A DNA stretch of 64,000 bases from Gnetum montanum. Lineage: Eukaryota; Plantae; Gnetophyta. The stretch spans positions 161,983 to 225,982 of the forward strand of contig MNCI01000667.1 in assembly GCA_015680685.1 (NCBI GenBank), in the 5' to 3' direction. The notes beneath the pieces are model-generated. The model was given only the letters and a program-made list of their open reading frames with translations, was not told the origin of the DNA and did not search any database. Shown one piece after another: positions 9,155-62,369 of the stretch. The position numbers and the translations under genes were made by a program. The number at the start of each line of letters is the position of its first letter. Positions within the stretch are counted from its first letter, which is position 1.

Positions 9155-9188
9155 ACCAGCATTAAAATCAACTGATTTTAATGCTGGT
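9155..9188. repeat. Perfect 16-bp inverted repeat with a 2-nt spacer
   Basis: ACCAGCATTAAAATCA-AC-TGATTTTAATGCTGGT. Confidence 0.95.
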
Positions 9189-16925: not shown

Positions 16926-18200
16926 AGATGAAACACCATATGTCAGTAACTTTGTCAATGCATCTCCATTGATGAAGCCTCATCAACACATCCTTGTCAA
17001 CCCATCTTAGATGTGTTGGCACAGATGCATCAATGAGGATGTGTTGATGCATCCTCGTCAATGCATGTTAGATACATTGGTGCATATGCGTCAATGCTTT
17101 GTTGCCTAGGATGTATAAATATGTGAGCACCTACCATGTATTTGGCACCATTTAGTTGGTAGTATAGCTAGACTCTTGTAGTTTTCTCTTGTAATCCTAG
17201 CAAATAGTCAGTGAGTGCCTATAGTGTGGATTTGAGTCAATTGTACAACATCTTATTTGAGTGGCATTGTACCTAGATACGTTCTATGAATGACAATAAG
17301 ATTGAGATTGATTCATCTTCATTGTAGTACTCTGACTTAGAATAGATTTACTTCCAATAGAATTTACTTTCTATGTACTTAGTTAATATTTACATTTTCA
17401 TGCATGTTAATCAATTGGTGGAATGAGCACAACCGGTTTCGAGTATAAACACGTATTTACTTGGTAATCCCAACAACATTATTGCTTCATTCATCAAGTA
17501 GCATAACATTTGGTAATCCCAATAGTAGGTACTTGAGTTCAGGACAAGTACGACAAGCTTAGAACAAATACTCATCATCCTTATGATAGTTTAGGATTTA
17601 ATTTTATTATTCATTGGATTAAATAATTAATTTCTATATTATATAGTTAGTTTTAGGCCTACAACAACATTAATAATCATATGCCTCACTTTGGACTAAA
17701 CCATACGTAACAAAGCTACCACTAATCTAAGTGAGAAGACAACGACTTGCAATCGATGCTTAACAATCTAGATACCACACTAGTTCCATTTATGGAATTC
17801 AACCAGATTACATGTGAATGCTTATGATTCATAAAGTTGGGCATGGGGATACTCACCACTCATCATTGGCATTGTTGTCAAGGATGGTGTTAGTGATCTA
17901 GATTAGTTATATTACAAATGATTGCTGTAAAAGAATTAAAAACTTATCTTTTAAGAAAAATTAATATTTTAAGTCACACACATTCTTAATTGAAAACATG
18001 TCTCCTTCAATAGATCCATTCCATTTATCAAACTACCCAGCATAGCACATAGAAGAATAGCGCATCTTGAGAGCAAGGCATCCTTTGTAACTTATTTACC
18101 CAAGAAAAAATAACATAAGAGAAGGATTAGGTTGATATTTTGATAATCAAAGAAATACAAAGAAGAACAAAAGAGAGATATGTTAGAGACTAATTCATAC
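16926..18200 (+). mobile_element. Truncated family-B Athila-like element: 5' LTR 16926-17865, PBS and gag start
   Basis: LTR homologous to 20601-21531 and 60486-61307, ending CTCATCA. Followed by decayed PBS TGGCATTGTTGTCAAGGA and ATGTCTCCTTCA as at 60351. 3' limit approximate. Confidence 0.82.
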
Positions 18201-22800: not shown

Positions 22801-25800
22801 TTAGATCAATTCTATATCATTAACAGTGGCCTTGCATTAATGTGGCCCTTCTTACCTACCATCATGAGTCCACAACAACTACAAAGGACAAACATCACTC
22901 CAAAAAGAGAAGTAAAGAGAAGAAGGAAGAAAGGACCTTAGTTAGAGGGATGCCTTTAAGCATGGATAACATGTCTTTCCAATCCCATAACCAGTGTTTG
23001 TAGTCCATTGTTGTGTCTAAGGTGTGTGTTGTGAATTTCCATGTTTTTATTTTATTTTATTTTGTTTTTGCTTTTATTATTTTTGGATAACCACACCATG
23101 CAAAGACATGCTTCTTATTTATTTTTCAATGATTAGGAGTAATGATACCTTAAATAAGTCATAAACCACAAGAAGGAAGTCAAGAAGAGAACTCACAAAT
23201 CCCCTTGAGGTCACACTATTTGTCATTCCCACTTGGTCTTTCCCTCTTTCTTCAAGGCATAATGATTAGCAATTAATTTTAGTTTTATATGGGAAGAACC
23301 ATATTGTTTTCATGATGAAGTTAGTTTCTTTAGAGAAATTTGAGGGATGAGTAATGTGGCCTTATTACAATACATAATTATTTACCCAATCATCTTGATA
23401 GCATAGGACAAAGACCCAACACATAACATTGGCTTCTACATCATGATTGGCAATATCATTATTAAAAAAAAAACATAATAGACATCCATAAAACATAAAG
23501 GAAATAACTTAAGAGAAGAAAAAATTATTAAGAAAAGAAAAATAATAAGAAATGGAAAATATATTAAGAATTGGAAAATTTTGAAGAAATAGTTAAATGA
23601 CTAAAAATTGTAAAATAAAAATAAAAATATATTTATTAGTTCTTGATTCAAGATGGGGCATCTTCCCTATGGCTAACCTCATGGGTGAGCATTTGGAGAA
23701 TGGATTGCACATTCCTTTGGTTATACACCATATGTTTTCCATTTATCATCATTAGTGATTTGAGTTTTCACTAGTTAGCACATTTAACATTGATGATAAT
23801 CAGGTTTTTGTCATTTGCAGACATATATTCAGTTAGACTAGAAGGTGTTATCTTATTAGATGGCCCATATATGTTTCCTTTTTGGTTATTGGGTCTCCAT
23901 GTTTAACAATTTCTTCTAGTGTATAGTTAGAGTGTAAGATGTCATTTTCTAAGTGCTCTATTTGGTTTATTTTCTTAGGAGTAGAACTAATAAGTGAGTT
24001 GGATGTTTCCATGCATCTTTTAAATGGTTTGGTATTCTCATTTTCTAGCCACTAGGTATCTTTTGGTTTAGTGACTATTATGTAGACACAGTTTGAGGAT
24101 TGAGAACTTAGAAGGGAGGTTAAATAAGTTCCCTAATTTGAACAATGAAGACAACCAAAACTACACACAATCCCCAACCTGGGTACTTACATACTCGGAG
24201 GGTAGAATCCTTGCACATCTCTAGACATTATTGCTTCAAAAATGTAATTTAAAGAGCACCACAACTTTTACAAAGTTTGAGCTTAAAACACCACCAAGTT
24301 TGGGCCACTACTGGGCCTACGCTCTCCACTATTGGGACTACACTTCAGAGCATAGTTAACGTAGTTTGCAACACAAGACCAGATTTGCAAGATTTTTTTT
24401 AATTGTCGATAGTAGTTACAAATTTTTCTAGGTGTTAGAGTATGCTCTCACTATTAGGACTACACTCTAGAGCGTAATCAGCATAGTCAACACACAAATG
24501 GCCAACTTTGTAAATTTTCCTAAGTGTTAAACAAGCAGCTATCAAGCTTTCTTGGCATGGAAGAAAAAGTTTGGCAAGATTTCTAACTACTGTGACTACG
24601 CTCCCTACTACACTCTTGAGTGTAGTCAGCATTCAAGCTCAATTTTACGAAATTTTCTTAACTATTGAGACTACGCTCTAGAGCGTAGTCTACTAGAACA
24701 ACCTCTAAAACCCTCTAGAACTTAACATTGGCCTTCGTTGCAGCTCTGACATACCTTCAACAAGGAGGCTCAGTGATTTGGATTTCTTTTGCATCCCCCA
24801 TTTGTCCCCAAGTTGTACCTACACTTGACACCACTCAAGAGAGTGGATAGCATAGCCCTAGAGTGTAGTCTTCAAACTTGCACTATTTTGCATTATTTTT
24901 AGGTACATGGCAGTCTATTTAGCATTGGCACATGTAGTTTGGGTAGCATAGTCATATTTTGGCAATTTCATGGGGTTCATTAGAGCATACCAGCATAACA
25001 CCATTTGCTTCAATGGAAGTGTAGTTTGGGTTAGTGTAGTTCCAACTACCCCTCCACCACGTGGTGCCCAATCCACAATTCACAACAATTCTAACCCTAT
25101 AAATACCCCACTGCTCTATGTTTTAGGGGTTGGAAATTTTTGCATCTAGTTGGCAAATCAACATTTCGAGCATTCTTGCATTTAAGCACACCTGGCATTT
25201 TAGTAGATTCCAAGATAGCACTTGGCATTGTTGCACACCATCACAAGACATCATTGTAGACCACTGCAGCCCATAGGACACTACAACGACCAACCTAGTA
25301 GGCACAAACACCACATCAAACGTTAGTCTTCATAGCCAAGACACCTTGAGGCTATGAATACACTACCTACTACACCTATTTGTACATTGCATGCCTCCTC
25401 ATCCTTCTTGTAGTTAACTATGCTCCTCCCCCCATTTGGGGTGATTCTGCTCTATCTGTCACTCTCCTTCTATGCATTTTTCAGCATTTCACTTGTATTC
25501 TAGCATTTACTTACTTTTTTTTTGCTATTTTTGCATGTAACTGTGCATTAACACCTTTTTTTGGGGAAATCCTTGGCTATGCTCATCCCCATTGACATCA
25601 TTAACGTTGTATACATTGTGCAAACACTTAACAATGTTTCGACATCACATCCTATAAGTCCCAATTTGATCAATAAGACTATTTTGGACACCTCGTCTTC
25701 ACTTCCAACAGGCCCTCACACGAATGTGGGGTTAAATTGTGCACACCAAAAACCTCTTAGTGTACTGTTCTAGCCTCCAACATTTTTAGTTGCTATAGTT

Positions 25801-26403
25801 TTCTAGCTCTAGAAGGAGGGCCAGTGCCATTTCCTTCTATGATCTTCATTGGTTGTTGTCTTGCATGCTCTCTCCACTACTATTGCTAGCTTCAGGCTAG
25901 CGTAGACCTGACACCCCTATGGACCTACCATGGCAGTAGCTACATCTAAGGCCAGCATAGGAGTTGTCTACAAATTGGTGGGTGTAGACTGGACCTCGTT
26001 GTTGGCTCCCCTAGAACTCTGCTTGACAACCCCCACAACATACATCTTACACTTAGCTAAATTCTGGGTGCTTAGGAGAGTGTAACTAGCTCTTAGTGTA
26101 GAGAGCATAATTGGCTCTTAACATAGTAAGTGTAGTCCCAGAGTTAGCCATTTTTAGCAGTTTCTGCAGTTAGCCATTTTTTAGTAGTTTTACACTTAGC
26201 CATTTTTTGGAAGCTTTACACTTAGCTATTTTTTTTTGCAGCTTTCATACTTAGTCATTTTTTCTTATCTTTTGCAACTAGTAACTTTTGCATTTCCTCT
26301 TAGCATCATAAACCTAGAGCAACCTTTGACCTCTACTCTAAGCATAGTTGTTGCCCAACCCATTCAACAAGAAATCTAGATCGACCATCCTACTAGTCCT
26401 GCC

Positions 26404-29400
26404 ATGGTAGGACAAAGGCAATCTCTTAGGTTGTGCAGCCTACCTCCCGAGTGCATGATCTTAAACGAAGAGTAATATAACTTCATTTGCATGAAGCTCT
26501 AGGTACGTCTATTTGTGGGCAATCTCTTAGGTTGTGCAGCCTACCTCCCGAGTGCTAAGAAATGGAGGCTAAATAAAGTTATGAGCTCATACACTGGAAT
26601 AAAAGGGAATACTTCCCCTTCGCTATGGATTTCATTCCACTTGCTAAACCTTATTAGTGGGTGCTCGCCTAGCTCATCCGAGCCAATGAGCGTGAGGTAG
26701 GGATAGACTAAGAGAAGCTCCTACAGGAAGAGCAGGATGAGTTTGAAGCTTGTTCAACACATGAGGACTCATTCTACACCTCTATCCAACAGACAATCTT
26801 TGTTTTCATTTCTTCACAGTCTCGCCCACCTGTCTTCCTGGAGATAGTTATAAACCCAGTGTCGCCTCCCAGGTCCTATGGTGGTGACCCATCATACACA
26901 GTACACACACTAGGATGTAGTACATTCCATTAGCTTGCCCTTTGTCATACAATCGCTCCCAACTCAACCTCCCTGCCAATAACCATCATGCTAATGTAAC
27001 CTTACGTGCACACCATGAACATTCCTCCACTGCAAGTGACTCAGGTGTTGTATGTCCCACCTCTCACATTGGTCCCCTTTACAATGCTTAATCCACAAAC
27101 ATGTGGTGGGGCCTAGCCGTTGTACTTATGTCATAGCCCATACAATAATCATCGTGCATGGTCTCAAAGCTCACAATTGGGTCGTGGGCCACCAAAATAG
27201 CATAGTGAACAACACAATTGACATAGCCTACTGCAACCTCCCCAAGTTTGGATCAAACGTTCTAGCTCATCCAAACTCTCACTAAAGAGGTCAAGCAGCT
27301 TAAGGCCACATCGTTTGAAATGATACATGTGATGGATTTATATTAGGATGACCTGACCAGTCCTGTGGTTCCACCACTAATAGTGCCTATCAAGGTCTTG
27401 CTCTCCTAGTTCATCAAATACAATGGTGAAGGGGATCCCAATGCACACTAGTGACCTTCTAGTCTAAATGCCTACTACTGCAAGCATGGCCACACATAAT
27501 CATATGTGTGTTCACCATATCCTTGATCGACAATGCATTGGATTGGTACCGTGTGGTTCCTAGGGCCTCCATTTCCTCTTTTAAGGATTTGCTTGGTATA
27601 ACTTGAAGCTTGAGGTAATCCTGGACTAGCTAATGTAGATTAAGCATGCCACTTAAATCCCATGCAAAAATTCATACAATGTTGAAGCACGTTGCTTAAT
27701 GAAATATGTGAGCCCATTGTGGAAACACATCTGCTGGCAATTTTCAAGGGTGCAATGAACAAGTTCATTAAGTCAAAGTTGTACTATTTAGCCCTGTAAT
27801 CCTTGAGCAAAGAATTTGCTCAAACTAAGAGCATTTAGGATGGTAGAAGCCAACAAGGATCCAACCTACATGGCCTACAAGAACTTGCATGCCAAAAAGG
27901 ACAAGGACAAAGGCAAATAGGCAACAACAACTATGGCAAGGATGGCCAATGAGGCCAAGCCAACCAACACCAAACCAATGGCCAAGCCACCTAAGGCCTT
28001 GGCCAACAACAAGGCTTTTGGTCCTAGCATTATAGAAAGCAACTAGCTCGCAACATCAATGGCTACAGGGCAAGCTGTCCCAAGGTCAAACTTTGAACAG
28101 AAGGCCCTATCAAAGTACACACCGTTACCACTCAAGTTGTCAAAACTTTTGGACAACTACTTAAGGCTGGAAGAATCTAGTACAAGTAGATGTTCAAGGA
28201 GGCTCGTAAGAGGCATGACCAATACTGTGAGCTCTTCAAGAATCCCTTAGCTGGAGCACCAAATGAGCCTTCTGTCCCTAAACATTTTTGGCTAGACCAA
28301 TTTTATCACTATCATCAATTGCCTGGACACAATACAGACTTTTGCATGTCTCTACAAGATGACATCCAATGCATGATTGAAAAGGGTGAATTGGTCCTTA
28401 ATGCAACCAACCCAGTTCACCCCAAAAACTAATTAATAAGGGTCTACAAGGATCCTCTGAACACAGGTAGTGCAGGGTACACCATCAACACTATTAGCAT
28501 TGATGACAACTTAGAATTGGTGTAGGAGCCATTTGTGGTTCATGTGCCCTATGGCAACACTATAGCCCCTCGACATCCACCAGTTTGAGGATCCCTTTTG
28601 TTATCGAAGTGCCACCTCGGGCACCCACAACACTCTTTGTGATCAGGGTCCCATAGCACGTTGTAGTAGTAACAACCTAGTCACCCTTTATTTTTAGGGT
28701 GTCACACCATGCGGACTCCTCACTTGTTCAAAGTCCAATTGTGGGCCGTGAATCAACCCTTGCACATGCAAGGGATCATCCTGCGGGCAACGCTTGTAGA
28801 ACATTTAGGTGGTGACCTAAGAGGCTTAACGAGTGCCTTGCCAACAAGATGATTAGGTAGTACCAGGAGCAAAAAGAACTAGGCCCACAAAATGTTGTCC
28901 TCATGTCCTCTATTCCTATGGCCAAATCAACCGAGAAGGCCATCACAAGCAACCAACAATTGAGTAGTGAGGCTTCTAGGTAAGCAAAACAAGCCAAGCC
29001 TAAATCCTCTTCATGAGAGATCTGTCTCTTGGGCTGCATGAAGGAGATGAAGGCCAACAAAATAGTAGATAGTGGCAAAGACTTTCTAGATGCATTAGCC
29101 TAAGTGAAATAGGTTCTAAAGCAAAAGAACACTATATTGAGCCTATATGACCTAATCATGACCTCCTCCACTCACCATAAAGCATTGGTCCACATGTTGA
29201 CCTCCATTCCTATTACATAGGACATCCTAGCAGATGAAAAATCCATCCATGCTATTATGGCTCCCCTTGCACCACAAGAATTGAGCTCAACGCCCTTGGC
29301 ATTCCATGATGAGGTGATTAAGGTTGACCCTGAGAAGGGTTAGGTCATTACTATGCTAATGTTTATCACAATATGTGTAGGGTAATGAAAGATTCACAGG

Positions 29401-30034
29401 GTGCATGTCAACGATGGGGCAGTAACCAACGTCATCCCATACACCATCATTGACAAGATGGATCTTGTTGACCAAATCAATTCCACAAAGACAACGTGCC
29501 TAAAGTCCTTCAATGGGTCACACATTGTCATAAGGGGAACAATCATGATAGCCTTCATGGTAAGGGAGCAATTCCTCACTAATGTAGAGTTCATCATAAT
29601 CAAGGAGATGCAAGGCTTTAACCTAATCTTAGGTAGGTCTTGGCTGGTCCAACTACAAGCTGTCTCCTCTCCTATTCACAAAGAAATCCACCTTCCATAC
29701 ACAAGTAATGAGGTTATCATTTATGATGACAATGCAACCCCTTTGGCCATAAACAACATAGACACAGAGCAAGGGTGAGAGGTGGAGTTCCCCGATGATG
29801 CACCTTCTATGAAGGAAGAGGTTGAGGCATGTAAGGCAAACCGACTTGTGGAGCCAAAGGGAGCCAATGACCTTCCAAAAGACATTCTATGGGCAGAATT
29901 GCCCTTTGACATAGCTAATGAAGATCAAGGAAAGTACTACATAGTACTGTCTATGCCCTACATGACCTCTAACTTGCATTGGGTTAGGAAGCAACTCCAT
30001 GACTAAAGCATCTCCTTAGTCCAAGATGCACTAG
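26404..30034 (+). pseudogene. Tat element gag-protease, decayed
   Basis: MVGQRQSLRLCSLPPE start, KYNGEGDPNAH, YHQLPGHNTDFC, protease-like VNDGAVTNVIP...FNLILGRSWL. Confidence 0.8.
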
Positions 30035-30704
30035 GTGCTTACCTACCCCTCACTTCTACATACCTCGCTTTCTTACATCTTGTTTGTGCATTTATGTTTT
30101 GCTTGGTTGTTTGCATTTTGCATTGTTTACTTTATTATGCATTTTTCTTTTATTTGTGCATTTTCTCTTAGTTTACGTCTTTATTTGTCTAGTTTACTCT
30201 TTAGCAGTTATTAGTTTATGCATGGAAAACATGAAAATACATAAAAATCATAAAAATTGAAACTACAAAAATACATGTCCCACCATGGCCTAAAATTGGC
30301 AATATTCCTTTCAACACATGGCCCAAAATGGTGTTAAACTACCACTAGAGCCTAGAATGGCCTAAAATTGCCAACCCACACTATCAACACACGTGGCTCA
30401 AAATGGTCTAAAACTAGCATAGGCCCTTCCATAATAACCTTAAAATGGCATGGGGCTTACAATGGCCTAGCTATATTATCATTGCATAATCATATCCTTG
30501 AATAGTCATAACTTAGCACATTAATCCATCGCAACATTAGTATAATAAACACATAGCAAATAAATGCAAAAGTCTACACACCATACACACAATATAGTAA
30601 ACACATTCATAACATGCCATCTCACATCAATAATAGTACATAGCATAAGCATCAACACCGTGTGGCAAAAGATGCATAAAAATGCAAAAATGCCCAACAA
30701 CAGG

Positions 30705-33700
30705 GCTACATTGGAACATGCTCAACTAGTGGTACTAGGTGGAGGTGGGGGTGCTTCTTCCTCGACTACGCTGTTGAGGCCTACATCACTTGGTGCCTAC
30801 TACAATACTAACAAAATAGTAGACCAATAAGCAAATGTACAATATGCAAACTAACATGAAAAGCATAAAAACAACACAAAAAAACTAACCTGAGAGGATC
30901 TTGCATTGATCATGTTTGGTGGTAGCCCTCCTTCAAGTGCTGGAGGATTTCAACCTTAGATAGCCATGTCCAGTGCTCTTGGCCAAAGGCAATCCCCACA
31001 AGGGTCTTACCTTTATCCACAGTGGTCCATGCGGGTGGCTCTATGGAAAACATAGTAGATGAATCCTCTTCTAAGGGTGTGATAATCTACCTCTTTGAAG
31101 AGCCAATCACCACGATATGATGAGTGAACAACTCATAGGCCCATCGATCACCAATTACCTTAAGGAACATCTCAAGGTAACAATGTTCGATGGACTCTTC
31201 TTTGAGCTACTAAAGATACGCATATCACTCGTGCTTGTAGTGGTGTTTGTGCTTCTTTTGGGTCTTCTCTAACCCACATAGCCTTGCATTGTAATTTTTC
31301 GAATCCTAGTTCTTTTAGGCAAGCAGATCCATTTGTAGCAATTGCTCAATAATCTCTCGAGTGGCCTCATTTTTACCCCAGATGGCCAACTAGTACTTGG
31401 CATAATCTATCTCTATGATCTACAAGCATTGTCTCCACATGATTGAGCCACAAAAGTCATATCGAGATTGAAGTTCCTCGATCTTTATGTCTTGACTCGC
31501 CACCCTCTCCTGGAGCTCATAGATGTGCTTCCACAAGTGCTCATTTGAGCGCCTATAGACCCACAATGCTTTCACTCAGGAAAGTGTGCATTTGCTGGCT
31601 GCATCGTATGTACGATGAGGCACCTACTCCACTTTAGGAGGGAACTTAGGGACAACATCTACTTTGGCCACCCTGCTCAGATCTTAGCAAAGATTAGAAC
31701 TAGTTGACATGCAACAAGAAAATCAACCTTAGCCATAGACTAAGCATCAAATTGGTAAAACAACATAAGCAAAGAAAAATTATACACATATCAAGCTTAG
31801 GATCTGCCTATTGTAGATGGTCAACCATATCCTCCACAATGCCTTCCATGAAGGAAAACTTGTTAAGTGTGTCTATCCACGACTTCATGTGGTAGGTAGA
31901 CATTGGACTGCTAGTAGGTTCATTTGGGGCTATTACATAACAATGCACTTAGCAACAACTAAATAGCCAAAGATGCTAGAGCAAAAGAGCAACAATAGGT
32001 GGCAATCTAAAGCACTCACCTAGTAGACCCTCAGGTGTGAGAGTAGGGGGGGTTACCCAACTGCATGCTATCAAAAAGGTGGTTAAAATCACCCTCATCG
32101 GGGTGGAATAGCCCCTCCTCCAATTGTTGGAGGGTCTCTATGGCCTCATGCAGCTCCTTCCCATGTGCTTTCCCCTCCTCAGTTTGAGGAGGGAACTCTT
32201 CTACTACTACTTCCACCATTGCTCTGGCATCCCTCTCTCCTAATTTTGACAATTTACAAACATAGCATGTTAGCACATGTTAGTATACATTAGTGCACTA
32301 ATATAACATAGTAAAAAACATAAAAATATGAACATGAAAAGTACAAAAAAAATGAATGCATTTGATAAAGTACATGTACTAACCTGCAACCTTTGTGCAT
32401 AAGCTAGAAAGCTTAACATGGATTTTTTTGCCACTTACCTTTCCAACTTCAAGAGCAGCCTCCTCTACAGGGCATGGCCTCTTGATCTTCACCTTGGACA
32501 GTTCCACCATCTTTGCAATATAACAATCAACCTTGTTCACATTCATAATGCTAACTAGGGAACCCTTGCCTACACTATCATGTGAATAGTGTGACTACCC
32601 CAAGAGACCTTTGGTTGTTACTAAATATGACTCATTAATCCCTTCTAGGAGATCCTACGTGTGGTTGGTCATGAACATATGCTTAACCCAAGATTTTGAT
32701 AGTTTCTCACAATCCTGCATGACCCATCGCCCACTATGACATACCACCAAGAGCTCCGTGAAGCTTCATAGATACCTTGCGAAGAATGCGAAGTGTACAT
32801 AAGATCTCGCTTGGAGGTTGAAGTGTAGCCTAGTGATCTCTACTTGTAAGCTAGTGGCGATGTAGGAGGCCTAGTTGAACCTCATGCTCTCCTATAGTAT
32901 CTCTTAATCACCTGTGCCTGCTCCACCCTAAGGATTTTTCCTTGGAAGAGCAACTTCAGGAAAGTATAAGCACAGAAAAGGGGGTAGAGCTCCCAGACCT
33001 CAGACCCAAGCATGTCTTTAATGGGGATGCCCTTGTATGATCGAGTGGTCCTCAACTAGCCCTCAATCTCTCCTTTGTAGTCCACCTCCCTATTAGCCTT
33101 GTCAATGACCAATGGGTCATTAGTGGGACGGCCAAAGAGGTTAGTAAAGAAGGCCTTACTGAGGTCTAGAACTACCATTACACCATGCACCCAGGTGACA
33201 AAGTTGTGAACATTGCTATTGAAGGAGTTTATGATGGTGACCATTTCGGTCATCAGAATGCTTAGACTAAGGGCCAAGAAAAGGTCCATCAACCCAACAC
33301 AGGTGAGCCTATTGGTCAATGCCTCTGAGGCCTGGTGGCACAACCGATGCTGCACACCCTCTACATCACCATATTTCATGATGATGGTGGCCTTAGTGTG
33401 GCTTGTGGTGGCCACCATCACCCCTCTTAAAGCAATTGCCACTACAATAAAGGCAAAAACAATGTTAACACCATGTAAGGGCAAATCAATGAGCACATGT
33501 GAGCAAGCATAAGAGCCAAAACAATAAATGCTTACGTGGAACAAATGGTGTGTGAGATGAAGGTGGTGGTGCAAACATCCCCTCAAGGTTGAGCTCACCA
33601 CTAGTCCATTCCTCATCTAGCCAATCATGGATTTTACACCACTCGTACACCCTCAGGTATTAGGTAGGGCGGGACTTGAGATCAGATCCCACCTACTCAA

Positions 33701-34340
33701 GTACAACCTCCCAAAAGTTTGGGCTAGATGAGAATACCTCTAGGGTGGTATGAGTGAAGTTAAGAGCATTCCTCTCATTGTGTAGACCCTAGTCATCAAC
33801 TCTGAATCTGGAATTAACCATGAGCAGTTAGCAACTTAGCATGAGCCAAAAGCAAAGAACACAATGCAAGAAACCATAAGAGCACTTACCCTCCAGTGCA
33901 GTATACAGTTCCAGGTGGGTTCTAGAATAAAGTGTGCATGCACAGAGCAACGAAGAGGATGTTGCTCTTGTTGTAACAAGAGAACTTTTGCATTTGTTAG
34001 ATCCTAAATAAGGGATGAGCTCCCAAACTACCTACTCTATCATCATTAGTAATGGGCTCTTCATATATGAACCTTAAAATGTCCTGGTTAGCCCTGGGTA
34101 GCAATGTCTTTGTGATGACATTGGTAGCCTCCATCGCTAAGTGTGACGACATCATCAAACTAAAGTGTTGCAACAGGAATTCCAGGAACTCATGTGCTCT
34201 TAGCCAGAACCACACTACCTGTTGATCCACACACATATCTGGTGCAAGCATGTTGGGAACAGGCTCACTCATGTAACAAAAAATGCCAACGAGCTCCATG
34301 ATAACTAGGATGGGCTTTAGTAGCACCTTGCAATTGCAAA
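30705..34340 (-). pseudogene. Antisense multi-exon accessory gene inside the Tat element, possibly with a plant-mobile-domain-like region
   Basis: Minus-strand donors at 33889 (GTAAGT), 33535 (GTAAGC), 32383 (GTTAGT), 32019 (GTGAGT), 30889 (GTTAGT). Acceptors at 33808, 33442 and 30800. Introns are ~80-130 nt and T-rich, between codon-like exons (ORFs 33997-34326, 33056-33616, 32031-32276). Domain call is tentative. Confidence 0.65.
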
Positions 34341-34744
34341 AGCTATAGACGAAGCATTAGTGTATATACATTGGATGCAATTTTAGCTTCCTCTATATGC
34401 AAAAGCTATAGACGAAGCATTGTTGGCATTTTCACATCTTGTAAGTCTAGCATCAATTACAATTCACAAAATTTTTAAAAACATTTTTCTAAGTCTGAAT
34501 AGTGTAGTTTGGGACGTTGCAAATTTTTTCTAACTTTGGGTTACCTCTAAGAGCATATTTCAAAAACATTGCAATTTTTTTAAACTCTGGATCACTTTGA
34601 CTACACTTTGGAACTATTGGATGGGCCATTTTGATAAACACTTGACATCAACTATGCCGGCAAGGCGAGAGCGTAGTCTTGGCTATGACTAGTGAAAATT
34701 GAGGTTTGGCTTCTGCACCAACACACTCTTTGTGCACCACACCC

Positions 34745-34860
34745 TGCCATGGCATTGTGCATTGCTCACCAATCCCCCTAGGCACTACACCTTGCCACGG
34801 TATTGCCCACCATGGCATTGTGCATTGCTCACCAATCCCCCTAGGCACTACACCCTGCCG
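34745..34860. repeat. 62-bp tandem duplication
   Basis: CCATGGCATTGTGCATTGCTCACCAATCCCCCTAGGCACTACACC twice. Confidence 0.9.
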
Positions 34861-34980
34861 CGGTATTACCCACCACTTGTTTCACTCCACCTTGTCATGG
34901 TGCCATGTGCTGTGATGGCCATGGTTGCTCCACCCACTATGCTTTAACATATGTGTAACCTCTGCAACCATGCCATCCAC

Positions 34981-36054
34981 TGGTATTACCATTTCTGGTT
35001 CTGTTGTCATCAAACACATTTGGAAGGCATGGTGTTATATCAGTCAATTTTGGAACTTTAACACTATCACTATCTCTTACTCTACACTTGATAAGCTTTC
35101 TCCTTGGTGGATTCCCATCCACAATGAACCTTGGGCCATTAAGCGTCCTCGTCTTTGTAGCACTTGGGATAAGCTTGGCATCTCCTCCCTCTCCTCTCTT
35201 CGCATTCATAATCGTTGGATTACTTGGAGTGAATGTCACCTTATTTACGGTATTAATGCTGCTCAAAAGTCTACCTTTTGTACGATTTTGGATAGCTTGA
35301 ACAGAAGTGTTGTTATTCAAGACTCCCTTGGTGGTTTTTTAGATCTTTCTTGGACTTCTGGTCATCAAGTCTTTCCCTATCATTCTAAGATTGTTTACTC
35401 TCTTATTAATTCCACTACTAATATTTGGCCTAGATTCAACCATCTTTGGCAAGTTAATCTTAATGTGCAGGTTTGGAAGCAACGTATTCAGACTATTTGG
35501 ACTACTCCTACTTCTTCAAAGATTCAACATTTTCTGTGGTATCTGATTCACCAAGGTCTTCCTGTGGGTGTTCGGCGCTCTCATCTGGGGGTTCCTGACC
35601 CGCGATGTCCTATTTGTCACAGGGAAGATGCATTTACTCACTGTTTTTTTTCTTGTCCCCTTGCTCATAGCTCTTGGATTTGGTGTGGCAGGTTTTTACA
35701 GGGTTTTCGACCAAGCTTGGATGAGGTTCTTTTTGGTGACACTCCGCATCTTCAAGGCTCTTTGATTTATATCTGGTGTCGCCTTCGTCCCCTTATTCTC
35801 CATGCTATCTGGAAATTTCGTTGTAATGTGGTTTTTCAACGTGATTCTCCTACTAATATTCTCTCCTTGTCTATTCAAGGAGACATTGTTCAACAGCTAA
35901 TGCTGCAGTTGAGCTCTTGAACTTTTTCTCTCTCTCTCTCGTTTTTCCTAATTTCTTGTAGTTTCTCCTCTTTTGAGGTGAGCGTGTCCTAATTTCTTGT
36001 ACTATTTTCTTTTTTCTCTATTAATTAAATTTATTTTTTGGGGTCCGACACCCC
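34981..36054 (+). mobile_element. Young 5'-truncated L1-type LINE fragment (ORF2 C-terminus and 3' UTR)
   Basis: Open frame to 35920 with KIQHFLWYLIHQGLP, CPICHREDAFTHCFFSC, IWKFRCNVVF. Perfect 16-bp TSD CAACCATGCCATCCAC (34965-34980, 36055-36070). Confidence 0.92.
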
Positions 36055-37609
36055 CAACCATGCCATCCACACCGATGGTGTTGCCGCGCACCACACCGCT
36101 TGCCTTGCCCTGCCACTATAATAATTTTTTTTTTCAAAAAAGATAAAAATAGAGAATGCTGAAAAGTGCCCTTGGCACTAAGCCTTCCTTTGCGGCCCAT
36201 GCAGTCGCACAGCTGCACTACAAAGTGTGACGCTCCCATGGCCCTCTCAACCCCGACGCACTTAATTCTTGCTCACATTTCTCCTCAAATAATGACAAAA
36301 AAAATAATGCAAAAGTTTTTGCGGGGCAAACCCCCTATCACGTCCTTACCCTACGACAAGCCACTCATTGCCACTGTTGGCGCTTGCATCCCCACCTTGT
36401 GTGCAAACATTTTTAAAAATAAAAAAAATTTACATAACCCTCGCTACACCATTTTCCCCACGAACAGTAGATCCTCGTTGCTGCCAAACCCCAAATCCCT
36501 ACCCTACACCATGCAAAGTACAAAAAACACAAAAATTGTAGCCACCCGTTGCATCCCATCAAATTCCACCAATAGCAAGTAAACCATCCAAACTTGCGGC
36601 CCTGTGCATGGCTTAATGACAACCCATGGCCTCCCGACTGGTGATCGCATGGGTTGCCATGGCAGCCGCGATTGCATTAAAATCCTCATGTCCTCAGCAT
36701 GCTCCCATTGCCCATGCACATAATAACAAAACCATCATTGCACTACAATCAGCGCCAAAAAATATCCCTGGCTTCTCGAAGCACATGCCCTCCCTTCCAC
36801 GATGGTGCCATGGCGGTTACGGCCCTTGCCATGGCAGGGCACCGCCAACCGCCAAAGCCCAAAACCCTCGATGCAAAAGACAAGCAAAGCAAAGGCAAAA
36901 ACGGTAGAAAAAGGGGAGAGCGTGGTTAGGGTACTTGTACATGCTGGCGTCCTTCATTCTTCCATGCGTGCCCGTGGCAGGTGGTCTAGTGCCCATTCTC
37001 CCTCATCCACATTTGCCAATTTGGGGTGCAGGTGTCCACTTTGGCAAGTCATCTTGGTCGCAACTACGCTCTTCAAAAATAGTGCACTATGCTCTTAAAG
37101 TTTACATTTTTCAAATTAAAAAATGACAAACTTACCAAAGGTCAAACGTGCTTTTATATATACCCCCACGGACCACTTAATGATTTAGACTATGCTCAAC
37201 ACTATTTAGTTGGCTGGGAGCGTACTTACCCAGACTTTAAAAAATTTTCAATTTTTTTGATTGTCCCCAAACTTAGAAAAATTTTAAATTTTTCTTGCTA
37301 CCCAGTGAGCATGCAGGTTGATTCCATGTTTCTACAAACTTCCAACCTTGCCCAAACTGACACATGTAGTGCATATCATGGTCCACTAAAACCTTAAACT
37401 AGCCCCCCATTGTCCACTAAGACCTTATACTAGCATCCATGGCCTGTCGAGGCTTAAAATTAGCACCAACAGCACCAACGTGCTTATTTTCTTTAATGTT
37501 ACATGTGCATACTTAGGAAAATTTTTATTGCATTGCTTTCCTTCATTTTTTTGCATACCAACTTCATTAAGATAGATGTGGCTTAATGTTTTTCTCGTTG
37601 TTTTTGTAG

Positions 37610-40600
37610 GATTTTCATAGGAATACAACATGACTATGTATGAGCATCTTCACTCACTTCTAGTCCTCACTAAGCCCCATGGTGATCTCATGCAATGCCT
37701 CGACCTTGAGCTCATAGCTTATGATAATACATAACATCCGTAGAGGCACTGCTAGATTAGCTAGACCATCTAGTTAAGGCTCTAGATTTAGAGACAGGTG
37801 ATGTTACTAAGGATCCTCTCATTCAAATCCTTGTAGCAACACCTAGTGGTGAGGTAAAGGCATTAAGACTTAGTTCTTTACTAAAGCCTCAACACTCCCA
37901 AAATATTGCTAAAGTTCGTAACAACAACATTAAAGCATTCACATGGTCCTATGAAGACATGCCAGGGTTAATCCTTGCGTAGTGTAGCATAACATTATCC
38001 CCGATCCCAACATAAAACCAGTTAAGTAGAAAGTACGTAGGTTAGGCCTGAGGTGGCATTGGTAGTCCATGATGAAATCACTAAGCTCTACAAAGTTGGT
38101 TTCATCCAGGCCCTTGACTATGCAGTCTGGATCTCCAACATTATGGTCATGCCCAAGAAAAATGGAAGTATACGCATTTGCATAGACTTCCAAGACTTGA
38201 ACAAGGCAACCATTAAAGACGATTTCCCATTGCTTGGTATTGATCAATTGGTCGATGCTATGGCTGGACATGCCTTGTTAACCTTCATGGATGGATTCTC
38301 GAGGTACAACCAGATTTAGATCAACCCAGAGAACTAGCTTCTTACTACCTTTATGACTTCTTAGGGTACATTTTGTTACACCATGATACCTTTCAGACTT
38401 AAGAATTTAGTAGCAACTTATCAACATGCCATAACATACATCTTTAGCAACTGCATGTTAGGTTTACTCAATGATTATGTGGATAACATAGTAATTAAGT
38501 TCAAAGTAGCACACAGTCATGCAAATGACTTAGACCTTGTGCTTAAATGTTGCTTGAAACAAAATCTTAAGTTAAATCCCAAGAAATGTGTTTTCAATGT
38601 CAAGATGGGCCAGATGCTTGAGTTTGTAGTAGTTGAAGTAGGCATACACGTAGATCCCACAAAAGTTAGGGTCATATACAAGTTAGCACCATTGGCCAAC
38701 CTTAAGGAGCTACAAGGGTTGCAGGGTCGATTGCAATTTATACGTAGGTTTATCGCATGATTGACCAATAAGTTGCAACCAATGCAACACTTGCTCAAAA
38801 AAGGAGTCCAATTTGAGTGGATAGCTCAATGCCAAGAGGCATTTGACAACCTTAAACAGGAGCTATCTCACCTTCCAATGATCTACCCTCCATAAGGGGA
38901 TAAACCCTTTTACATTTACCTTGCTACCTCAACACATCCATCGCTTCTTTGCTTTGCCAAAAGTGAGATGATGGCATAGAGGTCCTAGTATACTACTTAA
39001 GCCATGCATTGGTTGCCTATGAAGCAAAGTATAATGATGTGAAGAAGAATTGCCTTGCCTTGGTCTTTTCACTCAAGAAGTGAAGGCACTATATTTTTCC
39101 TAGTCAAGTTAACATCATCTACAAGAGTAACGTACTTTGAGTAATTACAATGAATATCTATGAGAGCAATCACATTGCATGTTGGAAAGCAATAACAACA
39201 AAGTTTGACCTACATTATGTAGTGCAAGCCTCAATGAAAGGTCAAGCTATAACCACATAACTCATGGCTTTGCCCATCAATGATCAAGCAACAATTGATC
39301 TAGAATTTTTGGATGAGCATGTTGATAGCATCAACCACGTTCTTGACAACTTTGAGGTACTCTTGCATTTTGATGTGCTTTGACCTCTCAAGGGGGTAAT
39401 GCCACTACCATCATCACATTCCCCTCTAGGGAGATTTGATCCTTTGCATATACATTCCTGTGCACTAACAATGTGGTAGAGTATGAAGGTCTCCTCAGAG
39501 GTATCTTAGCAACTTACGACTAGGAATCCAAAGCATAGCATTCCAAGGTGACTCGTAGTTAGTGATCAACCAGGTTATAGAGGCTTATGCTTGTAAATCC
39601 CAACATCTACAACCTTATTGTGACTTGATGAAACACTTACTGAAACAGTTTGCAACCGTAGATGTTCAATATATCCCTAGGAATGAAAACGCCATAGCCG
39701 ATGCTTTAGCAACATTAGCCATAAGTATTGTACCTAACATGTTTCATGCATTGTCCACCTTGGTGGTAGATTGCACTGTGCCTATCACACAAACCATTGA
39801 TATTGCATCCATAGGCATAGTTAGCACAACCCACATAGTAGAATTGTATAACGACATTAAGGCGTACGTTCTATAGGGTGAGCCTTTGTAGTATTTAACC
39901 ACTACCCAAAAGGACACAGTGCATAAACGATTGTGGCAGTATGTCATCATGGAAGATAACACACTATGTTGTAGATCCTACAATGGCATATTGTTGACCT
40001 GTGTTAGCAATAGTGAAGCATAAATGATTGTTGAACAAGTCCATAAGGGATTGTGTAGAGGTCACATAGCATCCGGAGCAATGGTCATGAAAATCAGATG
40101 CTTAGGCTATTATTGGCCTTACATGAAGCACGATTGTGTCTCTAAGGTTAAGATGTGTGATATTTGTCAATGGCATGACAACTTAATACATGTGCCACCA
40201 ACTAAACTGCACACAACACAGATCACATGGTCATTTCAATGTTGGGGGTTGGACATCATTGGACCTATAATACCAAAGTCAACCATGGGGCATAGCTTTG
40301 TTATAACCACAACTAAGTATTCTACTAAGTGGGTTGAGGCTATTCCCCTTAGGAAGATAACATCACAGTAGGTTTGCAAATTTGTGCTTGACAACATAGT
40401 GATCCATTTTGGTTTACCCATGACTATGGTAATGGACAATGGGCCATAGTTTAGTAATAATGAAACCAAGGCCTTCTATGAGTGCTTTGGCATTAAACAT
40501 TCCTTCTTGTCACTATACTACCTGTACGAGAACAGCTAAGTGGAGGCCACAAACAAGGTCATTGTCAACTTTTTAAAGAAGATGCTTAGCAGCAGTAAAT

Positions 40601-41085
40601 GGAAATGGCACAAACAATTAGTCTACATACTCTAGGCATATCACACGACATGCAAAACAACAATGGGTAAGACTCCATATAGCCTTGTTTATGGGTTTGA
40701 AGTAGTTTTACCTCTTGAGTTGTAGGTTCCATTGCTCCATGTGATCCTCTCAAACTTCATTAATTAGGATTAGAATGATGAGTTGAGAACTATGGACCTT
40801 GACTCTATAGAGAAGGAGCACATGTAGATGCTTGGTCGCATTGAGTGGTACCAAGAAAAGCAACGACAAAAGTACCATCACAATTAGCACCAGCACTTAA
40901 TCAAGAAAGGGGACCTAGTTCTCAAGGTTGTTCGTGAGCACATAGATAAATTCTCAGCTAATTGGGAAGGACCTTTCTTGGTCACTACAACCTATGATAA
41001 TAAAGCATTCAAACTTGCTAATCAAGATGACAATGAATTTGCTAATCAGATGAACTGCTCATATTTGAAGCCTTACTATGCCTAG
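37610..41085 (+). pseudogene. Tat element pol: RT, RNase H, additional archaeal-type RNase H, integrase; decayed
   Basis: FTWSYEDMPG, RICIDFQDLNKA, FMDGFSRYNQI, YVDNIV; aRH CTNNVVEYEGL, GDS, IPRNENAIADALA; integrase H..H..C..C, WGLDIIGP, KWVEAIP, DNG, WEGPF, LKPYYA stop. Confidence 0.92.
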
Positions 41086-41127: not shown

Positions 41128-41530
41128 CTCCTATGACTATAAAATGATGTAGAAAGTCTATTATTATGCTAAAATAGTGTTGTAAGTCTACTACGATTAT
41201 AAACCAGTAGAGTTCATTTGCTATGACATTAAACTAGCACAACATTTGTCCACTATGATATTAAATTGGCACAACACTCATTCACTATGACGCTACACTA
41301 GCAACTGAGCCTTTAGTTTGGTATGACTATAAACTAGCACAGATCATTGTCTATGACTATAAGCTAGCACAAACTATCTACCATGACACTAAACTAGCAT
41401 AATTTGTCCTTGGGTCATGACATTAGACTGACACAACAACACATTTGCTATGATATTAAATTAGCATGTAGTAGTCTACTAGGACTATAAACTATCACAC
41501 CATAGTCTACTGAGACCTTAAACTGGGTTT
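41128..41530 (+). repeat. Tandem array in the Tat 3' UTR, ~13 units of ~30-36 bp
   Basis: Conserved core CTATGACTATAAACTAGCAC separated by variable 10-16 nt linkers. Confidence 0.85.
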
Positions 41531-43945
41531 GCCATCACTCATGCATGGTTCGACGAGTAAGTGAGCGAGAATAATCCTAACTTTCCCTATCCACCATTTC
41601 CACTTTGCTGCACCACACAGGTGGGGACACTGTAGTCCTAGAATGGATTTCTTGTTGTTGGTAGAGACCTTTGAAACATTTGCAACGTTACTGCCCCCTA
41701 GCATTTTGGTAGCCTTTCGGAGCTCCTGTCATCAATGCAACCTTTGGGTGACACTTGTAACTAGTTTAGCCATTGTAGTATTTGCAACATCCTCGCATCT
41801 CATGCTGTGTGGTTGTTTTCTTATTTTCTCTAAATTATGTTTGCAAGATGAAGCCCTGGAGGTGATCATGTAGAGATGCATCTCATCGCAGCAGTAAGTT
41901 ATCACATTGCTTTGATGTGTATGATTGGACTAGCCAAGCCACTCAAGAGTGCACATCCCTGTTGTCCCTACTATAGCCTACTTGCATCATCTCTTTTACC
42001 TTGCATTCTCCCACCTTCCCCTACATCACCAAGCTTGCAAACCCCTTCGATGTACATGCCACCCTCTTCACATCAACTGCAGAATCCATGGAAGACATAA
42101 TGCAATTCATTCCTTGGGGAGCCTTTGTGGACTGGTTAAATCCTAAGAAAATGTAATGCAACTCATCTTAGGGAGGAAACACCTGTCCTACAGATGCAAT
42201 GTGGTTGCACCAAAGTAAAGCCCATTAGGTGGCATGCACCAAAGCAAAGCCCATTAGGTGGGAAGCATCTCATAGCTAGCATTTCACAATGTGCAGAACC
42301 CAAAGTAGGTTTGTGTTGTAGTCACAAAAAAAAGCAAAAAAGAAAAAAAAAGAGCAAAAATAAAAAAAGAAAAATGGCAAATAGGGCAAAGCATGTCCCC
42401 AAGAAAAATTAGCAAAGCTACAATTTCACAATGGGTCCAACCCTGAATCTATGCTAATTCTTTCATTTTAGCATTCTAACAAGAGATCACAATTTTAGAG
42501 GTAAGCCATTTTAGTGCCATGGATACTAACTCTCTCATAAGCATCCTGACAAGAGGTCACCATTTTGGCAGTAAGCCACCTTGGTGTCATGATTACCATA
42601 AGCCATGCTGACTCCACATCTTGCAACATGACATCTTACTTACATTTTGCCTCCCATCCATCCTTAGCACATTACCTACACCCTTTTCCTCCAACATACC
42701 ATAACCCTTAGCACTCTTGAGCATGGTGCAGTGACATTCAGTTAGGTACTAATGAGAGATTTTGGTGCAGGGTCTACTATGGTGGTTTACGTTCTTTGTC
42801 AATGCCTCTCGAGCCACTCCTCTAGACGTCAACAAAGAGGGGCCAATGAAACATCACCAAATTTGGGCCACTATGTCTCAACTGTAAATTTGTCTAAGTG
42901 TCAACACAAGGAAAATTTTTTCTAAGTGTTGGGCCTATGCTCTCCATTGCTAGGACTATGCTCTAGAGGGTACTTAGCATAATTTTGCAACACAAGACCA
43001 AATTTACAATATTTTTTCTAAGTGTTGACAACAACTACAAATTTTTCTAAGTGTTGGACTACGCTCTCACTACTGGGACTATGCTCTAGAGAATAGTCAG
43101 TGTAGTCAGCACACAAATAACTAGTTTTGCAAATTTTCCTAAGTGTCAAGTTAGAAGTTATCAAGCTTGCTTGACATGGAAGAAATAGTTTGGCAAAATT
43201 TCTAACTGTTGTAACTATGCTCCCTACTACACTTTAGAGCGTAATTAGCATTGAAGCTTAGTTTTGCAAAATTTGGCCAATTGTTGGGACTATGCTCTAG
43301 AGTGTAGTCAACGTAGTCTACCAGAATAGCCTTCAGAAGACTCCAAAACTTATCACTAGGCTTTGTCTTAGCTCCAACATACCTTTGGCAAGTAGGATCC
43401 ATAATTTGCATTTCTTTTGCACCCCCCATTTATCTCCAAGTGTTACCCATGCTTGACACCACTCGAGAGAGTGGACAACATAGTCTCCAAACTTGCACTA
43501 TTTTGCATTATTTTTAGGTACGTGGCGATTTGTTCAGCACTAGCACATGTCATTTAGGCAACATAGTCACAATTTGGGAGTCTCATGAGGTTCATTGGAA
43601 CATACTAGTAGAACACCATTTGCTTCAGTGGGAGTGTAGTTGGGATTAGTGTATTCCTAAATATCCCTCCACCACATGGTGCTTGATTTGCAATTCATGG
43701 CAATCCTAACCCTATAAATACCCCAACACTCTACGTTTTAGGGTTTGAAAATTTTTGCATCCAGTGGGTAAATTAGAATTTTGAGCATTCTTGCATTCAA
43801 GTGCACTTGGCATTTCAAAAAACTTCAAGCTAGCACTTGGCACTACTGCACACCACTGTAGGACACCACCATAGATCACTGTAGCCCATGAGACACTATG
43901 GCAACCAACCCAGCAAGCATAGACACCATAGCAAACATCAGTCTT

Positions 43946-44104
43946 CATAGCCCAAACACCATGAGACTGTGACTACGTTACCTATTATGCATGTTTGTAT
44001 AGCCCAAATTCCATAAGACTATGACTATGTTTCCTATTATGCATGTTTGTATAGCCCAAAAGCCATAAGACTATGTCTACATTGCCTACTATGTGTGTTT
44101 GTAC
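43946..44104 (+). repeat. Three tandem ~52-bp units in the Tat 3' LTR
   Basis: ATAGCCCAAA..CCAT.AGACT.TG.CTA..TT.CCTA.TATG..TGTTTGT three times; one unit in the 5' LTR (~25331-25385). Confidence 0.85.
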
Positions 44105-45980
44105 ACCGTGTGCCTTTTCATCCTTCTTGTAGTTAACTACACTTATCCTGCCCCCCTCCCCCTGTTTGGGATGGTGTTGCTCTCTTTGTCACTCTCCTCT
44201 TGTGCATTTTTCAGCATTTTACTCGCATTCTAGCATTTACTTACATTTTTTTGCTATTTTTGCATGTAACTGCATGTTGACACCTTTGTTTTCGAGGGGA
44301 ATCCTAGACTATGTTCACTATTATTGACACCATTGACATTGTAAACATCGTGCGTTACCTAACAATGTTTCAACATCACATCTCGTAAGTCCTAGTTCGA
44401 TTGACAATACCGTTCTGGAAACCCTGTCTCTGCATTTAGCAGGCCCTCACATAGATGCGGTGTCAAACTATGCATACCATAAACCTCTTGGTGTACCATT
44501 CTAGCATCCAATATTTTCAGTCGCTACAAAGCTCAACATGGAGTGTTTTCTCACAAGAAACACACTCAACCCCATAAGGTCCCAACAAGCTCAAAATGTG
44601 GTTTCAAGGATCCCACAACCTTTACAATGACATGAGAACTTCATGGAGTGTTTTTTCACTAGAAATACACTCAACCCTGCAAGGTTCCAACAAGCTCACT
44701 TGATGTGTTCTCACAAGAAGCACATCAATGTCATAGGGTTTACAAAAAGGAAAAAAGAATTAAGGAAAGAATGTAATTGCACTTTATAAATTCCTTGCAC
44801 TTAAGCTCACATAAAATAATTCACAAATGATGGAGAATTGAGGAACAAAATATTCACTTGATGTATACGATGATTAAATATTCTAATTAATAATGCTTGT
44901 CCTTTTCACAAGGATTGAAATCTATTTTATCACCTTTTTCCTTCCCATACAACCCTCAAAATTTGTGCAATGGCTAGGAAATGGCTAGTCAGGAAGTCCC
45001 ATTCAAGCTTGGGACATCTCACTCAAAACTAGCCACTTGTAGGTGGCATGTCCCACTAGAAATTAGGACGTCTCACCTAAGATGTCCTAGCTGGGACATC
45101 TCAACAACATTTGTAATGTTTGTTATTTTTGTGGGATGTTTGGCCTGGGACTAAGGTTTCACCTCTAGGACATTTGCTAATCTTTTGGGATGTCTAGGCA
45201 AATAATGGAACATCTTTGTTTAACTTGTAGGCTTCATGCATCCTTGACATCTTGTAATCTTAGTTGGGATTTTAGTCATGTAGATCTCATCTTGATCTCT
45301 TAACTTGGTCTTGTTCCAATCTCACCATCACTACGTCTAGGTTCTTGTCATGATCTTAAGCTTTTTTCATCTTATTCTTATCTTTTACAAGTCCTGTAAG
45401 ATTTCAACAAGCACATTTTCACATTCTTCATTTTCCAAGGTTTTGACATACCAATAGGTTAACAATCTCCTTCTTTTTGGTGATGTCCAAAACTTGTGAA
45501 AATGGGTTGGCATAATTCATAATATTATATGATAAACAGTTAAGAAAAATTGTGTCTATATATATATATATTGTTAATCCTATGGCAACAAGAAAAGTAA
45601 AGGAAAATAGAATGAAATAGTTAGCTAGCATAAATCCATTAATCATAATGACAAGAGGACAACATAAGAAAATAGAAATATCAAAAATAACCCAAAGGCT
45701 ATTCATATCTATCCACTTATCCATAATGCATAGTGTAAGTAAAATTAAATCATAATATCACATATAGCTAATATACATTGATCATTCCACAACCTATCTC
45801 CAAAGTCTTGATAAAAGAAATGCATATAGCATGACAGATACCATCACAATATGTTCAAACCATACAACCAATAAAGTGTCCATAACTGTATCACCACAAG
45901 CATGCACATAACCACATACAACTACAAAAATTCTCCTCTTTTTTGGACATCATCCAAAAGGTGGGGATTATAAAGAATCT

Positions 45981-62215: not shown

Positions 62216-62369
62216 CCAATTTTGAAAAGCCTCTCCTTTAAGGTAGGAAAAGGATTAGACCTTACCCTTTTTCAAAGGTTCCCTATTAGGTTTTCACTTA
62301 TACTAAAGGCTTTTTGTAAATAAATAAGAAAATAAATATCTATTAAAGCCTACAATTAAAACATAAATT

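Follow-up and report, generated by a model that had tools for sequence, protein, structure and literature searches.

A decayed, spliced antisense gene between protease and reverse transcriptase in a Tat-clade retrotransposon of Gnetum montanum

A 64,000-nucleotide stretch of Gnetum montanum DNA (contig MNCI01000667.1, positions 161,983 to 225,982; hereafter the window) contains a single integrated Tat-clade long terminal repeat (LTR) retrotransposon of about 20 kb. The element is complete in the window and has the order gag, protease (PR), a gap, reverse transcriptase (RT), RNase H (RH), archaeal-type RNase H (aRH), and integrase (INT). The minus strand of the gap carries a real, decayed, spliced gene of about 950 codons, and the anatomy of the element is solid and unusual. 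We favor, with moderate confidence, the reading that the gap is host to a multi-copy, seven-exon antisense gene, that it is likely spliced to join Gag-protease to Pol, and that the gene is likely driven by an LTR-like promoter and encodes an accessory protein acting on the element's own motif.

The initial annotation, made from the letters alone, had proposed about seven antisense exons and quoted three introns (33889-33808, 33535-33442, and 30889-30800). These three were exact, and three further introns (32383-32240, 32019-about 31930, and 31791-31704) make seven exons, as follows.

33890-34326, minus strand: earliest coding exon located, after an acceptor at 34327; its first in-frame ATG is at 34299
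33808-33889, minus strand: intron 1, 82 nt, GT-AG
33536-33807, minus strand: exon 2, identified by frame scoring
33442-33535, minus strand: intron 2, 94 nt, GT-AG
32384-33441, minus strand: exon 3, 1,058 nt, resembling a plant mobile domain (PMD) by eye only; a frameshift near 32900 and stops
32240-32383, minus strand: intron 3, 144 nt
32020-32239, minus strand: exon 4, acidic
31930-32019, minus strand: intron 4, about 90 nt; related DNA contigs also contain it
31792-31929, minus strand: exon 5, acceptor uncertain by 3 nt
31704-31791, minus strand: intron 5, 88 nt, T-rich, both ends decayed
30890-31703, minus strand: exon 6, with a heptad-rich stretch and possible coiled coil (crude heptad score, no null)
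30800-30889, minus strand: intron 6, 90 nt, GT-AG
30700-30799, minus strand: exon 7, frame undecided, end approximate

All six introns are T-rich, measure 82-144 nt, and fall within 33889-30800 of the minus strand; five of them start with GT, and the remaining one has decayed. Strong donors followed by a T-rich tail occurred four times on the minus strand and never on the plus strand, and none of 300 local block shuffles reached four; the filter uses general donor frequencies, and two of the six intron donors do not pass it. The proposed minus frame scored best of six in 8 of 10 exon pieces by both an amino-acid and a codon model, the frame being undecided for the 95-nt end of exon 1 and for exon 7. 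Three non-coding control pieces scored negative and the stretch upstream of exon 1 weakly positive; the integrase control belonged to the training set, one piece of which was out of frame. Junctions 1, 2, 3, and 5, worked by hand, keep the scored frames (four of the five testable), and the frame at junction 6 is undecided. Reading through the antisense exons gave 24 stops in 952 codons, and the other two minus frames gave 58 and 85. The density in the antisense reading equals that of gag-pol (30 in 1,240 codons), indicating that the two decayed alongside each other. The acceptor at 34327, which was absent from the initial annotation, suggests a further upstream exon.

Contigs from two DNA runs, X1 and X3 (two organism codes, two studies), were aligned to the window at 80% identity; X1 possibly derives from the source sample itself. 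The summed contig depth over the gene (30304-34515), which is not a copy number, was 665-5,092 in X1 and 728-7,099 in X3, whereas contigs identical to the window copy had a depth of 4.8-6.2, indicating that the antisense gene is multi-copy. Summed depth was 3,266-10,565 over PR, 13-38 over 36271-36972, and 557-2,360 over 36973-37674; it was smooth across the left gap boundary, with no drop at the sense donor. One related contig spans 31713-32121 and keeps both introns 4 and 5 in DNA. At the frameshift in exon 3, length differences were seen in 15 and 13 contigs, so this break is not family-wide. It is quite probable that the antisense gene stands in this position across the family. No proposed intron was matched among the contig joints listed (the best 15 of 806). 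RNA reads of run X21 were mostly first-mate-plus over the antisense exons, but over pol too, and 96% of them ran into unlike sequence; in run X24, the RNA depth within the gene was below 2. With strand not calibrated, the reads of both runs were counted neither for nor against expression.

The gap also has sequence signals in common with the LTRs, an addition to what the initial annotation had observed. The LTRs and the relevant parts of the gap are as follows.

24284-25797, plus strand: 5' LTR, ends decayed to TA..TA; nine ACTAYRCTC motifs, TATA core at 25098
42847-44528, plus strand: 3' LTR, preceded by a purine tract, with seven ACTAYRCTC motifs and a TATA core at 43713
34480-34680, no strand assigned: LTR-like motif module A, in which 34521-34590 is an inverted copy of 37230-37285
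36071-36970, no strand assigned: GC-rich, CpG-retaining, low-copy spacer, probably serving the antisense gene as 5' leader or leader intron
37060-37300, no strand assigned: LTR-like motif module B, a putative internal divergent promoter, conserved in related contigs, where a TATA can be read on either strand (plus at 37155, minus at 37158) and two minus-strand donors occur

The top 9-mer class of the 5' LTR, with CpG decay allowed, was GACTA(CG)CTC, and the motif ACTAYRCTC was first picked by eye. Exact copies number 20 in the window: nine and seven in the two LTRs and four in the non-coding part of the gap (34669, 37063, 37086, and 37189), with none in the coding parts or in 43 kb of flanks. 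With one mismatch allowed, 10 copies fell in 1,283 bp of the gap (34331-34964 plus 36961-37609), compared with 31 in the 43,186 bp outside. The string TATA[AT]ATACCCC occurs three times in the 64 kb, once in each LTR (25098 and 43713) and once in the gap (37155), where its core also reads as a minus-strand TATA (37158); no other such site exists in the element. Of the minus-strand donors in 36071-37480, the two best (GTAAGT at 37229 and 37135) sit in the same module. The presence of motif and TATA inside the gap ties the antisense gene to the element; it also raises a rival to a giant intron, namely a divergent internal promoter with a stand-alone pol. Local alignments between gap and LTRs gave z values of 3-4.4 against a crude shuffle, and a hidden Markov model of eight LTR units ranked gap sites at E 1.3-21 only. 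An LTR remnant inside the gap was rejected on these results; the motifs are common to both, with no recognizable remnant.

Further features of these regions were recorded. A perfect dyad of the LTR motif, shaped like the site of a dimeric protein, lies at 24670-24689 (ACTACGCTC-TA-GAGCGTAGT); both LTRs contain further dyads that have decayed. The spacer at 36071-36970 has a CpG observed/expected ratio of 0.62-0.80, compared with 0.13-0.28 in the LTRs and coding parts, and is nearly single-copy at 80% identity, which would fit a protected, fast-changing, or younger stretch. The inverted pair 34521-34590/37230-37285 (0 of 500 shuffles) consists of LTR-type A/T-tract units around the low-copy stretch and a later long interspersed nuclear element (LINE); it does not enclose the antisense gene and has no clear target duplication.

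The element surrounding the gap was delimited by its LTRs, which are 78.8% identical in a self-comparison of 1,498 aligned bases (261 transitions, 57 transversions; Kimura two-parameter (K2P) distance 0.26); the copy is old and broken. A 5-bp target duplication with one mismatch (24279-24283/44529-44533) flanks it, and together with the matching LTRs this shows integration as one unit. The coding parts are as follows.

27302-28500, plus strand: decayed gag with a zinc knuckle near 28300-28400, found by tblastn with public Tat polyproteins
28741-30034, plus strand: gag-PR continuation and protease (about 29340-29780), up to the putative donor; RVP_2 weak (E 0.077), matched by public Tat polyproteins
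37610-41085, plus strand: decayed pol (RT, RH, aRH, integrase) from Pfam and polyprotein matches; first in-frame ATG at 37630

When stops were translated as X, Pfam found RVT_1, RT_RNaseH, RVT_3 (the second, archaeal-type RNase H, E 6.9e-11), and rve, in that order. Protease was weak in Pfam, but public Tat polyproteins matched both protease and gag. The 1.5-kb leader (25798-27300) had no open reading frame (ORF) of 100 amino acids and no Pfam match, and the 1.76 kb between pol and the 3' LTR had no extra-ORF domain match in six frames. After the 5' LTR there is no TGG start; the primer-binding site region is decayed, and a tRNA-Arg primer-binding site is not recognizable.

The initial annotation had also bounded the gap by an AG before GTGCTT at 30035 and by TTTTTGTAG ending at 37609. 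Both ends and the length of 7,575 bp agreed with our analysis, as did its estimate of about 6.5 kb without the later LINE, since removal of the LINE piece and its duplication (1,090 bp) leaves 6,485 bp. The relevant features are as follows.

30035-37609, plus strand: gap between PR and RT, a putative giant sense intron (6,485 bp minus the LINE)
30035-30214, plus strand: T-rich block after the donor, with five AG candidates of its own (30171-30214)
34981-36054, plus strand: later LINE 3' fragment (zf-RVT, E 1.8e-11), with a 16-bp target duplication at 34965-34980/36055-36070
37480-37609, plus strand: T-rich block that starts with GTGCTT and ends at the pol acceptor; could be a standalone 130-nt intron

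Both gap ends are T-rich (0.51 over 30035-30230 and 0.49 over 37480-37609), and the gap matched none of 96 public polyproteins at E < 0.01. All three sense frames hit a stop within 46-75 codons past the donor. Joining 30034 to 37610 gives a phase-1 junction, and the frame entered continues into RT past a frameshift near 37725, a site at which the length varies in a few related contigs. The PR-RT linker after this join would be about 244 codons, compared with 124-466 in public polyproteins (the 12 of 96 in which both marker motifs were found). Thus, for the giant PR-RT intron that had been claimed, the splice-like ends, the phase-1 join, and the normal linker stand, and splicing as one intron is putative. 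Either removal of the gap by splicing or its bypass by an internal promoter is likely. The broader proposal of a gene within an intron within a retroelement fared likewise: the spliced antisense gene is real, multi-copy, decayed with gag-pol, and tied to the element by the LTR motif, whereas the gap is a putative intron. The LINE fragment comes from a high-copy family that also appears in poly(A) RNA (in X24, a depth of about 42 for each mate direction), and LINE-related pieces occur at 62353-62840 and near 1920-2129.

The protein encoded by the long antisense exon had been likened to the PMD proteins of transposons. The RFNx motif is present, and exon 3 carries motifs in a PMD-like order when set beside the PMD sequences available in PMC5418596 supplement 4. 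The resemblance is by eye only: Pfam PMD (PF10536) had no match on the single-frame exon pieces, which are short and decayed, at E ≤ 1 or E ≤ 10, and the motif chain was not above shuffles. As PMD-coiled-coil proteins are described as the extra-ORF products of Tat lineages IV and V in the available part of PMC4408406, a PMD-coiled-coil protein is a fair prior for the antisense product, not a result, and we give even weight to the proposal that it may be a distant PMD/coiled-coil accessory protein. Pfam gave no transposase match on the antisense exon pieces, Rfam gave 0 matches, and PDB sequence matches were weak and unrelated (best E 0.022). Pattern scans found nothing in viral contigs and confirmed 0 of 212 in metagenomes, in which eight motif matches shared nothing else with the element. 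Single-sequence structure models were unusable (pTM 0.21 and 0.25).

Several points weigh against the reading favored here, in addition to the nature of summed depth. Within the gene, the reading frame crosses junction 4 only if one more frameshift is assumed close to where exon 4 ends, and junctions 3 and 5 each offered several candidate splice sites, from which ours were selected. The donor on the sense strand scores a weak 1.8; the frame agreement of the giant splice has a chance level of one in three and crosses the frameshift near 37725; each T-rich gap end can be read as a separate short intron; and an LTR-type TATA lies 455 nt before the pol acceptor. Two RNA runs yielded no RNA joint, including none for 30034/37610, and among the pieces listed (the best 16 of 93,328) no contig linked the gene to PR or RT. 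ACTAYRCTC could be a host transcription-factor site. The best three-motif PMD chain falls within exon 3, yet scores as high came from 79 of 300 shuffles and from 25 of 96 unrelated polyproteins, and the first half of exon 3 had 0 matches in 1.84 billion representatives and in a word search (481 candidates).

The gap may instead separate two transcription units, the LTR giving genomic RNA and Gag-protease, and an internal promoter firing both ways to give an RT-RH-aRH-INT mRNA and the antisense mRNA. The stand-alone pol mRNA would use the short intron 37480-37609 and the ATG at 37630, and would be compatible with the giant splice. This proposal accounts for the plus-strand LTR-type TATA at 37155, the two plus-oriented motifs just upstream (37063 and 37086), and the conservation of the module region in related contigs (depth 557-2,360). 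It also fits the T-rich block, which begins exactly at GTGCTT 37480 and is sized like the other introns of the gene, the in-frame ATG 20 nt past the acceptor, and the AGs that the left T-rich block has of its own. However, GTGCTT is common (14 in the element), the giant join already gives a phase-compatible linker of normal length, and no RNA start was seen there in the two RNA runs. Pol unfused to Gag would also need another route into the particle, as occurs in foamy viruses. We regard two transcription units as possible but rather unlikely.

An ordinary Ogre-type intron, in this copy or in a recent ancestor, could have received an independent high-copy element, either a DNA transposon or another repeat, as the antisense gene. 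Multi-intron structure is typical of DNA transposon genes, PMDs occur in Mutator-like elements according to the available part of PMC5418596, and the lack of a linking contig among the pieces listed agrees with such an origin. On the other hand, no transposase was matched, the gene has decayed to the same degree as gag-pol, its upstream region carries the LTR motif and TATA of the element, and depth is smooth across the left boundary. The initial annotation had named independent termini with a target duplication as the sign of such an insertion; no terminal (inverted) repeats or target duplication were found around the gene, unlike the LINE, and we did not accept an A-rich inverted match of 17 nt (30246/37246) as a terminal repeat. 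We therefore consider an independent insertion improbable. A one-off chimera or dead relic, arising by recombination of two elements and never a working design, would suit the age of the copy (K2P 0.26), but is very improbable given its integration as one unit and the multi-copy status of both gene and promoter module.

By sequence comparison, the element belongs to the Tat clade (Ty3/gypsy, non-chromovirus), as it has the RT-RH-INT order with an extra aRH and an RT closest to Tat. The RT had 96 matches at E ≤ 1e-40, the best being 45-48% identical and coming from aRH-bearing plant polyproteins. In an unrooted tree without outgroup, built from the window RT and 48 of the 96 matches (the labeled ones with at least 83% cover; labeled angiosperm rows, with no named Tat or non-angiosperm references), the window RT formed a long branch within a 21-row split (100/100) alongside Vicia, Medicago, and Trifolium rows. 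From host names, we provisionally take this to be the Ogre side.

The RH-aRH-INT layout is common to Ogre, Retand (PMC6317226), and several non-angiosperm Tat clusters (PMC10508981), as described in the available parts of these sources. Like Ogre (Tat lineage IV of Ustyantsev 2015; Ogre clade of Neumann 2019), the element has aRH between RH and INT, a non-coding interval with stops and splice-like ends between gag-PR and pol, a size of about 20 kb, an extra ORF, and an RT beside legume rows in the unrooted tree. In the available part of PMC4408406, Ogre splices the PR-RT interval, Tat extra ORFs encode PMD-coiled-coil proteins, and the extra ORF of Ogre is in sense orientation and 5' of gag; that of the window element, in contrast, is antisense, multi-intron, and inside a 6.5-kb PR-RT interval. 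Other differences are LTRs of 1.5-1.7 kb compared with 1.9-6.5 kb in Ogre (PMC6431247, available part), an RT just 45-48% identical to its best matches, and the unrecognizable tRNA-Arg primer-binding site. Retand, Grande, and RIRE2, together with Tat lineages III and V, also have a family-wide antisense accessory ORF, with PMD or PMD-coiled-coil products in lineages III and V, but there the ORFs lie between pol and the 3' LTR. In Retand this region is 2.9-6.6 kb with an antisense TRP28 ORF, whereas the 1.76 kb of the window element had no TRP28 match. Spliced antisense transcripts are something still to seek, according to the available text of Vicient and Casacuberta 2020 (PMC7264820). The non-angiosperm "structure 1" Tat clusters A, D, J, and K (Biryukov and Ustyantsev 2023) have the same RH-aRH-INT order, and such a host would fit the long RT branch away from all angiosperm matches; compared by description only, and within the available text, these clusters are described without a PR-RT gap, intron, or antisense gene.

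Read from one dead copy, the cycle of the element would involve a full-length sense RNA that is reverse transcribed unspliced. Because unspliced genomic RNA is the template of reverse transcription (established retroelement biology), antisense introns would be copied and kept. By analogy with Ogre, a splice from 30034 to 37610 would make Gag-PR-Pol, a step to which we give somewhat more than even credence. Antisense transcription would probably start near 37130-37300 and reach the acceptor at 34327 through a leader intron, with the module at 37060-37300 as candidate promoter; Grande gene23 likewise has its own antisense promoter (PMC7264820, available text). As the same dyad motif lies in both LTRs and in this module, binding it is the simplest role predicted for the protein, which may, by tentative analogy, act on ACTAYRCTC dyads in the LTRs and internal promoter as an activator or anti-silencer. 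Such binding would resemble that of VANC (PMC5735166) and of MAIL PMD proteins, for which an association with DNA motifs and an action against silencing are described (bioRxiv 10.1101/2024.09.27.615353), each in the available part of the source. The VANDAL/VANC and MAIN/MAIL PMD modules resemble the element only in how they work, pairing a separate accessory gene with a short motif that recurs in non-coding control regions; VANC is encoded by DNA transposons, MAIL by host genes. More speculative, and in our view unlikely, is a three-unit lineage with an LTR-driven gag-protease and an internal divergent promoter serving a stand-alone pol and an accessory gene of seven or more exons, whose protein would bind the motif of LTRs and promoter as a self-encoded activator or anti-silencer.

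Other features of the window were also recorded. The leader has a possible intron at 26126-26300 (donor 26126, then a T-rich 26-nt tandem array), followed by an exact 36-nt duplication near 26419 and 26519. Short tandem arrays lie in the gap (30271-30470, where related contigs differ in length, 34335-34421, and 34747-34875), in the 3' region (41221-41399), and in the 3' LTR only (43947-44103). The element is nested in another repeat, as its flanks (24105-24283 and 44530-45464) continue each other and match 56888-58009 (79-81%). Two other repeat families occur in several copies and both orientations (104-1613, 49463-50243, and 54958-56501; 16927-18013, 20603-21530, and 60335-61284), and an assembly gap of 569 N lies at 13556-14124.

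The layout had not been recognized in the initial annotation, and our literature search, with Steinbauerova 2008/2011, most subscription papers, and several supplements outside its scope, likewise gave no antisense intron-containing gene between PR and RT. In the available text, "intron" does not occur in PMC11963269, and neither "intron" nor "antisense" occurs in PMC13468544. Published surveys, in the parts available, place Tat extra ORFs only 5' of gag or 3' of pol, as single ORFs of at least 250 codons; Neumann 2019 (PMC6317226), for example, classes them as 5' or 3' only and requires at least 250 codons. A multi-intron gene between PR and RT would be missed or fragmented by such a filter.

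The question of the Tat extra ORFs has long been open. If the layout described here holds, a fully spliced gene can be carried by an element with an RNA replication cycle when it is placed in reverse orientation, and the element would have either a PR-RT intron of unusual length or a Pol produced separately from Gag. The antisense gene would plausibly help the element to regulate itself. The motif common to the LTRs and the upstream region of the gene would then be a candidate target for Tat extra ORFs, making the anti-silencing idea directly testable.

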